This document shows positions 3,983-6,835 of a stretch of DNA of 28,702 nt, one piece after another. The notes beneath the pieces were generated by a model. The model searched no databases and had not been told where the DNA came from. It saw nothing but the letters and a program-made list of their open reading frames with translations. The DNA comes from a virus. Made by a program: the position numbers and the translations under genes. The DNA is taken from UHGV virus genome UHGV-0186015; one strand, given 5' to 3'. Every line of letters starts with the position of its first letter. Position 1 is the first letter of the stretch.

Positions 3983-4657
3983 TTAGGTCTTTATTTTGTA
4001 TCTTCTTGGTTTTCCCGAGAAAATCACTGTACCAATTATAGAGCAATTACCGTTGATCTTAATGTAAGGTTCAGGCCAGTTTGGGTTTAATGCTTTGAGG
4101 TAACGCTGTGTTCCATCTTCTATCAACCGCTTGAAGGTGGTTTCGCCTGTATCGTGCATCAATGCAATAACGTCGTCACCGTGGCAGGCAGGGACTTCAG
4201 GATCAACAAAAATCATGTCTCCTGGGCGGTACTCATCAATCATTGAATCACCAATCACCCGCAAGATATAAGTCATTTCACCACATGGTACAGGGCAGGG
4301 ATAAGTTTCTGCTGTGCTCAAATCAACCTCAGAATAACCAACTTCTTTCCATGCTCCGGCCTGTACCCATGATATGACAGGGACTAACGTTATTTGTTTG
4401 TTAGTGATTGAAACATCAGGTTTTTTTGTGATGTTCGTTGTCTGGTGTTCTTGATCAAGCCATCCGACAGGCAGGTCGAAACATTTTTCGATGTGCCGTG
4501 CCATGCTGTCACCGATATTTTTAGTTGCACCATCTCCCATAAACCTGCTGGTCTGGGTTGGCTCGCGATCAATCATGGTGGCAAAGGAAGAATTCCCGCC
4601 AACACCATCTCTCAGTTTTCTGGCGTTAGACCGCCGGATGTCATGGACTGTTTTCAT
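3983..4657 (-). CDS. cI: CI-type prophage repressor (N-terminal HTH, C-terminal S24 LexA-like autopeptidase)
   Basis: 224 aa; GDSM (catalytic Ser) and FKRL (Lys) motifs; Ala-Gly candidate cleavage site in VQAGAW; divergent from a Cro-like gene across an operator region. Confidence 0.88.
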   Translation of the reverse strand: MKTVHDIRRSNARKLRDGVGGNSSFATMIDREPTQTSRFMGDGATKNIGDSMARHIEKCFDLPVGWLDQEHQTTNITKKPDVSITNKQITLVPVISWVQAGAWKEVGYSEVDLSTAETYPCPVPCGEMTYILRVIGDSMIDEYRPGDMIFVDPEVPACHGDDVIALMHDTGETTFKRLIEDGTQRYLKALNPNWPEPYIKINGNCSIIGTVIFSGKPRRYKIKT

Positions 4658-4747
4658 AATGAAATTAAAACCTTTGTACCGTTAAGGTACAAGTATCTTG
4701 AAGGTTCATTTTAATCATGTAATATGTACACCGGAGGTACATATTGT
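4658..4747. promoter_or_regulatory. Immunity-region operators OR with divergent pRM/pR
   Basis: Two perfect palindromes: TTGTACC-N5-GGTACAA (4674-4692) and AATATGTAC-N7-GTACATATT (4721-4745). Candidate pR: TTGAAG (4698-4703), 16 nt, TAATAT (4720-4725). Candidate pRM on minus strand: TTGTAC / TTTAAT ending ~6 nt before the cI ATG, suggesting a leaderless cI mRNA. Confidence 0.6.
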
Positions 4748-4948
4748 ATGAAAGCGTATTGGGACTCTTTAACCAAAGAACAGCAGGGCGAGTTGGCCGG
4801 AAAAGTTGGCTCAACACCAGGCTACTTACGGCTGGTTTTCAATGGTTATAAAAAAGCCAGTTTTGTGCTGGCTAAAAAAATTGAGCAATGCACGTCAGGT
4901 GCAATTACGAAATCTGACTTAAGACCGGATATCTATCCGAAAGATTAA
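4748..4948 (+). CDS. cro: Cro-like / YdaS-type small HTH regulator
   Basis: 66 aa from the ATG at 4748, with GGAGG 10 nt upstream; first rightward gene opposite cI. Confidence 0.7.
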   Translation: MKAYWDSLTKEQQGELAGKVGSTPGYLRLVFNGYKKASFVLAKKIEQCTSGAITKSDLRPDIYPKD

Positions 4949-4979
4949 CAGAACACCTTCAATTTTTAACCACAGAACG

Positions 4980-5549
4980 ATGAGGCTAACCGTGGGTAAG
5001 CATCACTGGAAAGTAGAAAAACAGCCTGAGTGGTACGTGAAAGCTGTCAGAAAAACTATCGCGGCATTGCCGGGGGGTTACGCTGAAGCTGCTGACTGGC
5101 TGGATGTAACAGAGAACGCATTATTTAACCGCCTTCGTGCCGATGGCGATCAGATTTTCCCGCTGGGATGGGCAATGGTTTTACAGCGTGCTGCTGGCAC
5201 TCACCACATTGCGGATGCAGTCGCACAGTCTGCTGGTGGGGTGTTTGTATCGCTTCCTGAAATTGAGGAAGTAGAGAACGCCGATATCAACCAACGCCTG
5301 CTGGAGGTCATTGAACAGATCGGCAGTTATTCAAAACAGATTCGTTCAGCAATTGAAGACGGGGTGGTGGAACCACACGAGCAGGCAGCAATTAACGACG
5401 AACTGTACCTGTCAATTTCGAAGCTGCAGGAGCATGCAGCACTGGTCTACAAAATCTTTTGCATTTCAGAAAGTAATGACGCCCGCGAGTGTGCAGCTCC
5501 GGGCGTCGTGGCGTCGATTGCTTCTAATTGTGGAGAAACTAACGCATGA
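4980..5549 (+). CDS. Putative CII-like / YdaT-type early regulatory protein
   Basis: 189-aa ORF immediately after cro; functional assignment is from position and a vague family resemblance only. Confidence 0.5.
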
Positions 5550-5884
5550 ACAGTTTAACAACACCCTACCGTCGCTCGCAACTGATTGCGCTTCCTGTAC
5601 CGGGTGGAAAAGCGAAGGTGGAGTATTGCTATGCAGTGAATGTACCAGGTGACAGGGAAATTGTAACCCACAGCTTTGCAGAGTGGGCTGTGGGTGATTT
5701 CAACCGGCAGAAGGAGACAGTCCTTTGCGACAAATTAACCGCTGGTTCAAAGATCACTACGGAGTACCCGTCAGAGTCATTCGTTGGGAGCCGGAAACAC
5801 AACGGGTTATCTACCTCCGCGAAGGCTATGAGCATGAATGCTTCAGTCCGCTCGAACAGTTTCGTCGTAAATTCAGGGAAATAG
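5546..5884 (+). CDS. Hypothetical early protein; C-terminal half probably out of frame
   Basis: ATG at 5546 overlaps the upstream stop, GGAGA upstream. First ~60 aa look protein-like; the Ser-rich tail looks like shadow translation of the overlapping frame. Confidence 0.35.
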
Positions 5885-5904
5885 AGGTCGGTCATGAGCA
5901 CTAA
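5725..5904 (+). CDS. Small TTG-initiated protein, 59 aa ([59 protein letters not shown])
   Basis: AGGAG at 5712-5716, 8 nt before TTG at 5725; protein-like composition; stop overlaps the ATG of the O-like gene. Absent from the ORF track because it is just under 60 aa. Confidence 0.4.
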
Positions 5905-6835
5905 ATTAACCGGCTATGTATGGGATGGTTGCGCAGCGTCAGGCATGAAATTATCCAGTGTGGCAATTATGGCCCGCCTGGCTGATTTCAGTAATGACGA
6001 AGGTGTGTGCTGGCCATCAATTGAAACCATTGCCCGCCAGATTGGCGCAGGGGTGAGTACTGTAAGAACGGCTATCGCACGGCTGGAAGCAGAAGGCTGG
6101 TTAACGCGTAAGGCGCGTCGCCAGGGTAACCGCAATGCGTCGAACGTCTATCAGCTTAACGTTGCAAAGCTTCAGGCTGCGGCACTTTCTCAACTGTCAG
6201 ATTCTGACCCGTCAAAATCTGACGCATCAAAATCTGACCCGTCAAAATTTGATGCGTCGAAATCTGGCAAAAAAGCGGGTTTTCACCCGTCAGAATCTGG
6301 CGGGGATCCGTCAGTAAAATCAAAACATGATCCGTCAGATAAAAAACCTTCTCGTCCGGACGCTTCGCAACCGGACACGCAGAAGGCTGAACAGGATTTT
6401 TTAACTCGCCATCCTGATGCGGTTGTATTCAGCCCTAAAAAGCGCCAGTGGGGAACGCAGGATGATTTGACCTGCGCACAGTGGCTCTGGAAAAAAATCA
6501 TCGCCCTGTACGAGCAGGCCGCCGAATGTGACGGCGAGGTGGTACGTCCGAAAGAACCGAACTGGACAGCCTGGGCAAATGAAATTCGCCTGATGTGTGT
6601 ACAGGACGGTCGTACCCACAAACAAATCTGCGAGATGTACAACCGTGTCAGCCGCGACCCGTTCTGGTGCCGTAACGTGCTCAGCCCGTCGAAGCTGCGG
6701 GAAAAATGGGATGAACTTTCCCTGCGCTTATCGCCGTCCGTCAGCACGTACACAGAAAAACGCGAAGACCCGTACTTCAAAGCCAGTTACGACAATGTGG
6801 ACTACAGCCAGATCCCGGCAGGATTCAGGGGGTGA
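5894..6835 (+). CDS. Replication initiator (lambda O-like), N-terminal HTH with internal iteron-encoded linker
   Basis: 313 aa; N-terminal HTH typical of phage replication initiators; middle SDSDPSKSDASKSDPSKFDASKS linker is encoded by tandem DNA repeats, as in lambda O/ori. Confidence 0.8.
   Translation: MSTKLTGYVWDGCAASGMKLSSVAIMARLADFSNDEGVCWPSIETIARQIGAGVSTVRTAIARLEAEGWLTRKARRQGNRNASNVYQLNVAKLQAAALSQLSDSDPSKSDASKSDPSKFDASKSGKKAGFHPSESGGDPSVKSKHDPSDKKPSRPDASQPDTQKAEQDFLTRHPDAVVFSPKKRQWGTQDDLTCAQWLWKKIIALYEQAAECDGEVVRPKEPNWTAWANEIRLMCVQDGRTHKQICEMYNRVSRDPFWCRNVLSPSKLREKWDELSLRLSPSVSTYTEKREDPYFKASYDNVDYSQIPAGFRG
6203..6345 (+). repeat. Candidate phage replication origin: four tandem 15-bp iterons plus three degenerate copies inside the O-like gene
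   Basis: TCTGACCCGTCAAAA / TCTGACGCATCAAAA / TCTGACCCGTCAAAA / TTTGATGCGTCGAAA at 6203-6262, then CCGTCAG-containing copies to ~6345 followed by A-rich sequence. Confidence 0.6.

Follow-up and report, generated by a model that had tools for sequence, protein, structure and literature searches.

A probable pair of overlapping out-of-frame genes, ymfM and a nested DUF4222 gene, in the early-right operon of an e14-like prophage

The DNA analysed here, referred to as the window, is the whole 28,702-nucleotide (nt) stretch of the virus genome UHGV-0186015, and its segment 5546-5904 very probably carries two real genes of an e14-like early-right operon, which lie on the same strand and overlap out of frame. 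The longer open reading frame (ORF-A; 5546..5884, plus strand, ATG at 5546 and TAG at 5882-5884) is ymfM, which encodes 112 amino acids (aa) and is the orthologue of Escherichia coli K-12 b1148, the 'cell division inhibitor YmfM' (SfiC). The shorter one (ORF-B; 5725..5904, plus strand, with a TTG start and a TAA stop at 5902-5904) encodes a 59-aa protein of the DUF4222 family (Pfam PF13973; WP_071789194 in the annotation of PGAP, the NCBI pipeline). The frame of ORF-B is -1 relative to ORF-A (5546 mod 3 = 2; 5725 mod 3 = 1). Of its 180 nt, 160 fall within ymfM and 20 extend past the ymfM stop, and its end overlaps the start of the next gene, a replication gene with its ATG at 5894, by 11 nt.

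The comparisons described below show that this segment is dual-coding in an uneven manner. DUF4222 and the N-terminal module of YmfM (hereafter N-module) are constrained as proteins, whereas the constraint on the remaining tail of YmfM is limited to an open frame, a hydrophilic composition and a set end point. Each of the two genes is already known singly; new are their conserved co-existence, the fixed position of the ymfM stop and the resulting ambiguity over the division inhibitor.

The nested DUF4222 gene

Comparative evidence argues that the TTG-start DUF4222 gene is real and under strong purifying selection. ORF-B matches the Pfam DUF4222 profile with E = 2.2e-18 and 66 bits (cut-off 27), its residues 3-53 aligning to profile positions 4-52 of 53, and over the overlap its ratio of nonsynonymous to synonymous differences (pN/pS) is 0.19, with pS at 0.67. 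A search of 5.8 billion proteins returned 138 clusters across Enterobacterales, mostly of 59-70 aa and all with PF13973. The Shine-Dalgarno sequence AGGAG (5712..5716, plus strand) lies inside ymfM, 8 nt before the TTG, and a GGAG-like motif is found at most ~15 nt upstream of the DUF4222 start in nearly all loci compared. Among 36 genome loci from ~11 genera the start codon is ATG in 31, GTG in 2 and TTG in 3, the last in E. coli/Shigella only. Furthermore, the gene adjoins the replication gene in all loci compared. Phages of Serratia and Citrobacter also have it on its own, downstream of a KilA-N or Rha gene.

The AlphaFold model of the DUF4222 protein has a predicted local distance difference test score (pLDDT) of 82 and forms a small beta-barrel, for which a fold search gave generic small beta-barrel matches only, while a search of the PDB by sequence gave no match. 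ORF-B also matches phrog_1343 and ORF-A phrog_1170 (E = 4e-68), two families of unknown function that PHROGs keeps separate. No NCBIfam family matched either protein, and ORF-A has no Pfam match either.

Two rare metagenomic ymfM alleles, P0013 (107 aa) and P0017 (105 aa), carry in-frame deletions at the DUF4222 initiation region, which remove exactly the DUF4222 Shine-Dalgarno sequence (residues NRQKE) or its start codon (residues ETVLCDK). By their sequence, they look like natural variants that are DUF4222-null and YmfM-intact.

ymfM and its N-module

ORF-A is 96% identical to K-12 YmfM over 112 aa, with identical synteny. It is taken as a real gene because purifying selection acts specifically in its frame, its ribosome-binding site (RBS) and start are kept, and stand-alone members of its family exist. 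The selection at the amino-acid level concerns residues 1 to ~57 (5546..5716, plus strand), where, in each sequence type, the ymfM frame has a pN/pS of 0.35-0.51 and the two alternative frames have 0.9-1.4. These first ~57 residues are conserved even in the most distant homologues, and the remainder diverges freely. The RBS, GGAGA (5531..5535, plus strand), lies 10 nt before the ATG within the conserved block TGGAGAnACTAACGC-ATG-AACAGTTTAAC. GGAGA and ATG (GTG in two loci) are kept in 33/33 loci compared, in nearly all of which the whole block is closely similar, regardless of the type of N-module that follows it.

Three co-linear sequence types can be told apart among the upstream modules of the 36 genome loci, and hhalign relates them to each other (A-B probability 95%, E = 3e-8; B-C 88%). 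Stand-alone homologues of 53-68 aa occur in other prophages. A profile search of 1.84 billion representative proteins found just 108 relatives, including stand-alone forms of 58-68 aa; one 59-aa stand-alone gene, flanked by cII and KilA-N, shares an ATGA overlap with each of these neighbours and has no DUF4222 in its vicinity. Taken together, these comparisons indicate that the N-module of ymfM is a real coding module. Residues ~14-51 of the N-module match the repeated unit of large Gly/Thr-rich proteins of 500-1400 aa (LPVGGGDVTYCYAVDNTGDVTL, in 4-7 copies; P0240 and similar), which may reflect a beta-hairpin motif common to both or a coincidence.

A sequence-only reading of the window had noted both frames and had proposed, as one option, that the short TTG gene alone was real. 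The features on which it relied are all present: the ATG ORF at 5546 with its Ser-rich C-terminal half, and the 59-aa peptide in the -1 frame, with AGGAG 8 nt before the TTG at 5725 and a stop that overlaps the next start. Its TTG gene, which ATG-only or longest-ORF calling misses, is borne out as DUF4222, but the ATG ORF is real too. The either/or reading fails because both ORFs are supported as genes. It had also held that conservation of the 112-aa frame from end to end under purifying selection would speak against it; this frame is open throughout in all homologues, but purifying selection is seen in the N-terminal half only.

The open tail and the fixed stop

The overprinted tail of YmfM comprises residues 61-112 (5726..5881, plus strand) and occupies the +1 frame of the DUF4222 gene. 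Because codon position 3 of DUF4222 is codon position 2 of ymfM, no synonymous change in DUF4222 leaves the YmfM tail unaltered. At 1.70, the pN/pS of the tail frame does not differ from the 1.71 of the untranslated +2 control frame, which indicates no constraint at the amino-acid level, and the tail is predicted to be disordered (pLDDT <50 for residues 67-112). Measured by amino-acid purifying selection, only the DUF4222 product is constrained within the overlap, which in this narrow sense does not qualify as dual coding. Measured more widely, as selection in both frames beyond what one coding frame entails, the overlap does, as the following observations illustrate.

The ymfM frame is free of stops across the whole DUF4222 gene in 37/37 unique sequences from ~11 genera, which form 11 clusters at 85% nucleotide identity. 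When the DUF4222 codons are recoded synonymously with local codon usage, the tail frame is open in 3-17% of trials per locus, with a mean of 7.4%. At DUF4222 codons 4, 18, 28 and 43, synonyms ending in A or G would make a stop in the ymfM frame. Among the 24 unique sequences of the same length, these four positions use only codons ending in T or C: codon 28 is GTT throughout, each of the other three shows both T and C, and the common codons CTG and GTG are absent. In IMG/VR, 80 near-identical loci (95-97%) were found, and both ORFs are intact in 79/79 complete ones.

The position at which the ymfM frame ends is equally regular. The TAG at 5882..5884 (plus strand) is made of a rare Ile codon of the DUF4222 frame, ATA, and the G that follows. 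This DUF4222 codon, number 53, is always of the rare form NTA (ATA in 16, TTA in 7 and CTA in 1 of the 24 unique sequences) and thereby creates the ymfM stop. From this stop to the ATG of the next gene there are 12 nt in 34/35 loci in which the next gene is called, and 9 nt in the remaining one (L029), a distance that holds across five sequence types of the N-terminus of the next gene. In 35/36 related genome loci, some stop lies within ~12 nt of the start of the next gene. The stop and the ATG of the replication gene share a frame, the spacing always being a multiple of three; read-through seems unlikely, because the stops are always TAA or TAG. The in-frame relation recalls the fusion seen in SfV-type phages (see below).

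The composition of the tail is biased as well. Ser and Thr make up 28% of the C-terminal half of ORF-A (11 Ser and 4 Thr in 53 residues), against 12% of its N-terminal half and 3% of ORF-B. Compared with open synonymous recodings, the tail has more Ser and Thr (0.33 vs 0.24 expected), an excess found in 33/33 loci, and on average fewer hydrophobic residues (0.19 vs 0.30). In the DUF4222 frame, C at the third position reaches 0.37 vs a background of 0.27.

On the minus strand, a 90-aa antisense ORF (5629-5901) runs in register with the DUF4222 codons. It was dismissed as a gene, being open in only 22/33 related loci, and is most likely a by-product of the avoidance of TTA, CTA and TCA codons.

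Control frames and divergent lineages

The +2 frame of DUF4222 always carries 1-6 stops. Where no N-module precedes DUF4222, stops interrupt the +1 frame also: 4 in Serratia phage BZS1, where the gene follows KilA-N, 7 in Citrobacter phage phiNP, where it follows Rha, and 3 in the phage recorded as Elizabethkingia EKP1.

Several lineages have rearranged the pair. In the clade of locus L123, a 55-aa DUF4222 of clearly divergent type is fully nested in a 117-aa ymfM-like ORF, which would be open by chance with P = 0.04. In this locus, where the frames differ, and in L121, where DUF4222 is deleted, the ORF still ends at most 11 nt from the next start. In Entomohabitans, where DUF4222 is mostly deleted, the N-module ORF has 78 aa and still ends 8 nt beyond the start of the following gene. 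The N-modules of Yersinia phage YeP3 and of a Providencia prophage are stand-alone genes that stop at the DUF4222 start; in Providencia, DUF4222 in turn stops at the start of the next gene. The detached +1 frame over the DUF4222 core is nevertheless open for 62-89 codons in these two (L120 2487-2675 in Providencia; L133 687-956 in YeP3), with a chance of about 0.03 for the open frame of L120.

In SfV-type phages, a fourth type of N-module (MNSLTANNRLSQQLVV...) runs, in the +1 frame, through a 59-aa DUF4222 gene that has a GTG start. Without the ymfM stop, this ORF proceeds in frame into an Ash or Ash-Rha protein and reaches 278-383 aa. Examples are L129 552-1388 (phage SfV orf37) and L137 593-1744 (phage PhiR40_1), both with Phage_ASH from residue 117, to which Rha is added in PhiR40_1. 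At the site of the ymfM stop, SfV has TGT-G, giving GTG in that frame, vs ATA-G, giving TAG, in e14-type loci. The long ORF may result from a fusion; alternatively, this GTG may serve as the start codon of the Ash gene.

A possible translational chain and its alternatives

The arrangement that we favour joins both genes in one chain of translation. ymfM would be initiated at its kept RBS and at the ATG that overlaps the ymfL stop, would make the ~57-aa N-module, and would then be read on through DUF4222 in the +1 frame, which would add a hydrophilic, predicted-disordered tail of ~52 aa. DUF4222 would be initiated separately at the internal Shine-Dalgarno sequence and the TTG, yielding the 59-aa predicted small beta-barrel. 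The selected property would be the act of translating the tail, by which the ymfM ribosomes would be carried over DUF4222 and released 12 nt before the ATG of the replication gene. The order ymfL > ymfM > (DUF4222) > O could thus be read as an unbroken, translationally coupled chain, and ymfM ribosomes crossing the DUF4222 start would modulate initiation there. The existence of the two genes is the firmer part of this account; that translation through the tail, as a ribosome relay or coupling, is what selection keeps is a tentative proposal, plausible and somewhat short of probable.

Several points weigh against this account. The null for the open frame depends on the method, since shuffling of codons within the gene leaves the tail frame open in 27% of trials per locus and is a much weaker null than recoding. 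The loci are phylogenetically related, and the per-locus probabilities cannot simply be multiplied. The ribosomes of DUF4222 also end at the start of O in the 59-aa forms, and the need for a second coupling partner is not obvious. The hydrophilic bias of the tail could mean that the tail peptide itself matters. The model of YmfM has a pLDDT of 52, which is too low for a structure search, and literature searches found no ribosome-profiling or proteomic data for either product. Finally, neither a relay nor a fusion explains why the +1 frame is still largely open in Providencia and Yersinia, whose N-module is detached from it.

The function of the tail may instead lie in its peptide, as a disordered, composition-constrained linker, degron or spacer needed by the N-module in this lineage. 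This possibility, the chief alternative and one that is compatible with the coupled chain, is a doubtful one. It would account for the Ser/Thr excess in all 33 loci (33% vs 24%), the hydrophobic deficit (19% vs 30%) and the raised third-position C (0.37 vs 0.27). The SfV-type stretch that joins the N-module in frame to an Ash/Rha protein and the +1 frame that stays open in Providencia and Yersinia despite its detachment also speak for it. However, the pN/pS of the tail does not depart from the +2 control, lineages that retain the N-module lack the tail or have it shortened to 18 aa, and the fixed stop before the next gene would be left without explanation. A neutral history, in which ymfM lost its stop at a mosaic junction and the open frame was inherited rather than selected, is improbable. 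The lack of amino-acid constraint on the tail, the 3-17% of recodings that are open by chance and the shared ancestry of the loci are all in line with it, but synonymous sites are near saturation (pS 0.67) and codons ending in A or G still never appear at the four stop-prone sites. Moreover, openness recurs in the L123 and SfV clades, and the codon that makes the stop is always a rare NTA.

Existing annotations each favour one gene. PGAP lists DUF4222 alone and leaves the 175 nt after ymfL unannotated, a choice in keeping with the missing Pfam and NCBIfam matches of ORF-A and its unconstrained C-terminal half. That the 112-aa ORF is spurious is nonetheless very improbable, given the purifying selection on ymfM codons 1 to ~57, the kept RBS and start, the stand-alone relatives, the avoidance of stops with a fixed stop position, and the stops in those controls that have no N-module. 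The converse view, that only ymfM is real and the TTG ORF arose by chance, is implied by the K-12 RefSeq record NC_000913.3, which gives ymfM only, and by the phage records PhiR29_1 and SfII, in which the 339-nt ORF is the only one annotated; TTG is also a weak start codon. We consider this scarcely credible in view of the Pfam match (E = 2e-18), a pN/pS of 0.19 at near-saturated synonymous sites, the ATG start in other genera, the stand-alone DUF4222 genes with no overlapping ORF and the confident fold prediction.

An equally remote explanation is a single gene split by a frameshift, whether a decayed ancestor of ~120 aa, as the sequence-only reading had suggested as its other option, or a programmed -1 frameshift giving a YmfM-N::DUF4222 fusion. 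The interval 5697-5725 proposed for the shift was correctly drawn, as the ORF-B frame extends 9 codons upstream from the TTG before it meets a stop, and in-frame PF13973 fusions of 102-119 aa do exist (P0027, P0056, P0063, P0067). These fusions, however, are >90% identical to the two-frame form and derive from different small indels or deletions; an ancestral fused gene was rejected on these grounds, the database fusions being recent variants. The two-frame layout is found in all 37 unique sequences, in all 36 genome loci and in 79/79 complete viral loci, DUF4222 proteins are stand-alone and mostly of 59-70 aa, and each module is found without the other. A programmed -1 frameshift was rejected likewise: from 5546 to 5760, the ymfM frame lacks any X_XXY_YYZ heptamer, and L017 and L038 have a stop in the DUF4222 frame 0-1 codon before the DUF4222 start.

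Comparison with known systems

Embedded out-of-frame gene pairs are known from phages, and the Rz/Rz1 pair of lambda, in which Rz1 lies in the +1 frame inside Rz, is an example. The pair described here resembles it in that both genes are conserved and share DNA on the same strand, with the RBS of the inner gene inside the outer one. It differs in that the inner gene runs 20 nt past the outer stop and the overlapped part of the outer gene shows stop avoidance only, and there is no evidence of a functional link between the YmfM and DUF4222 products. By comparative sequence evidence, the architecture belongs to this kind of gene pair, with one frame apparently selected for openness and not for its sequence.

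Translational coupling by termination and reinitiation at ATGA-type junctions is common to phage and bacterial operons. The ymfL/ymfM junction is of this ATGA type, the ymfM stop lies 12 nt before the ATG of the replication gene and the DUF4222 stop 8 nt after it. The difference is that the window would need an alien frame of 52 codons to be kept open across another gene, for a role in coupling that is itself inferred. To our knowledge, there is no described precedent for this.

Small phage inhibitors of the FtsZ ring include lambda Kil, Rac KilR, Qin DicB and T7 Gp0.4. The ~57-aa N-module and the 59-aa DUF4222 protein are both in the size range of these inhibitors, and the prophage early operon and the SOS induction are further points of likeness. 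They differ in having no Pfam, NCBIfam or PDB sequence match to such inhibitors, and in their location in the replication operon instead of the early-left operon.

Within its own family (Pfam DUF4222/phrog_1343), ORF-B is typical in length and in its position upstream of a replication initiator. Unlike the distant members in Serratia and Citrobacter, which are not overlapped, the DUF4222 gene of the window is almost wholly overlapped and has a TTG start. Because the overlap is clean and widely conserved, with one frame that appears to be selected only for openness and a set stop, it could serve as a benchmark for the detection of overlapping genes and as a test of long-range translational coupling.

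Implications for the division inhibitor SfiC

YmfM (b1148) of the E. coli K-12 prophage e14 has been reported to be SfiC, an SOS-inducible division inhibitor, and induced expression of the ymfM ORF blocks the formation of the FtsZ ring (Ansari et al., bioRxiv 10.1101/2020.11.19.390815). The assignment rests on pBAD24 carrying the ymfM 'open reading frame' and on a ymfM deletion (bioRxiv 10.1101/2020.11.19.390815). An earlier filamentation clone from a library carries the entire region (PMC3614548), and PMC6206680 is a further source on function and annotation. K-12 has the same 112-aa YmfM with the same neighbours as the window (ymfK-ymfT-ymfL-ymfM-replication gene) and the same nested TTG-start DUF4222 ORF, with one residue different. 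The K-12 work treats ymfM as a single gene, whereas two genes are described here; the text of bioRxiv 10.1101/2020.11.19.390815 makes no mention of a nested ORF, an overlap or DUF4222, and literature searches found no later dissection of the ymfM ORF.

The ymfM ORF includes the Shine-Dalgarno sequence and the TTG start of DUF4222 together with codons 1-53 of 59, that is, the whole Pfam domain. Both published filamentation constructs that were found, the expression clone and the genomic clone, thus carry ymfM and the nested gene (DUF4222 codons 1-53 at least), and a ymfM deletion would presumably also remove most of the DUF4222 gene. The SfiC phenotype cannot yet be assigned to one protein, because the ymfM ORF also holds most of the DUF4222 gene. 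In its boldest form, the proposal would be that filamentation is wholly or partly due to the nested DUF4222 protein, or needs both products, and that the operon keeps a 52-codon 'alien' frame open purely as a ribosome relay. This combination is speculative and rather unlikely as a whole. Reports of ymfM as the long-sought sfiC date from 2020-21. The K-12 reference and the NCBI pipeline, which is used for thousands of other E. coli genomes, each omit one gene that comparative evidence supports.

Operon context and further features of the window

According to the ORF map and the domain searches, the segment 5546-5904 belongs to an e14-like lambdoid prophage and lies in its early-right (replication) operon. 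A LexA/cI-type repressor gene (3983-4657, minus strand) and a Cro-like gene (4724-4948), both identified in this manner, are followed by ymfL (4992..5549, plus strand), which encodes a CII/CP76-type regulator (Pfam Phage_CP76, E = 1e-14) and whose limits are those of the PGAP annotation of a 99.7%-identical genome. The TGA stop of ymfL shares the sequence ATGA with the ATG of ymfM. After the two overlapping ORFs comes the gene of an O-like replication initiator (5894..6835, plus strand; Pfam HTH_36, E = 3e-12), which is named 'DNA replication protein O' in phage records. The segment is matched in 2,685/5,426 complete E. coli genomes, in 1,931 of them with at least 80% query coverage.

At the ymfL/ymfM junction, an abundant 116-nt cis-antisense small RNA, ECS003, has been described opposite the ymfM RBS in K-12 (Shinhara et al., 2011, PMC3175480). 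The corresponding region of the window is ~5470-5600 on the minus strand. The junction block ACTAACGCATGAACAGTTTAAC shows unusual nucleotide conservation between E. coli and Klebsiella and most other loci compared.

A simple scan of 5300-6000 found no promoter-like sites, and a terminator scan of the same interval found two terminator-like sites, which is the chance level. In Rfam, the interval 4600-6400 gave only a sub-threshold match to ES205 (5469-5537, minus strand) and a spurious one to mir-5880. The latter falls on a 15-nt tandem repeat of 4.3 copies (TCTGACCCGTCAAAA, with a 30-nt super-period) at 6203-6266 of the window, within the O-like gene, where it codes for the SDPSKSDASKSDPSKFDASKS stretch of the O-like protein. 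This repeat probably represents the iterons of the replication origin.

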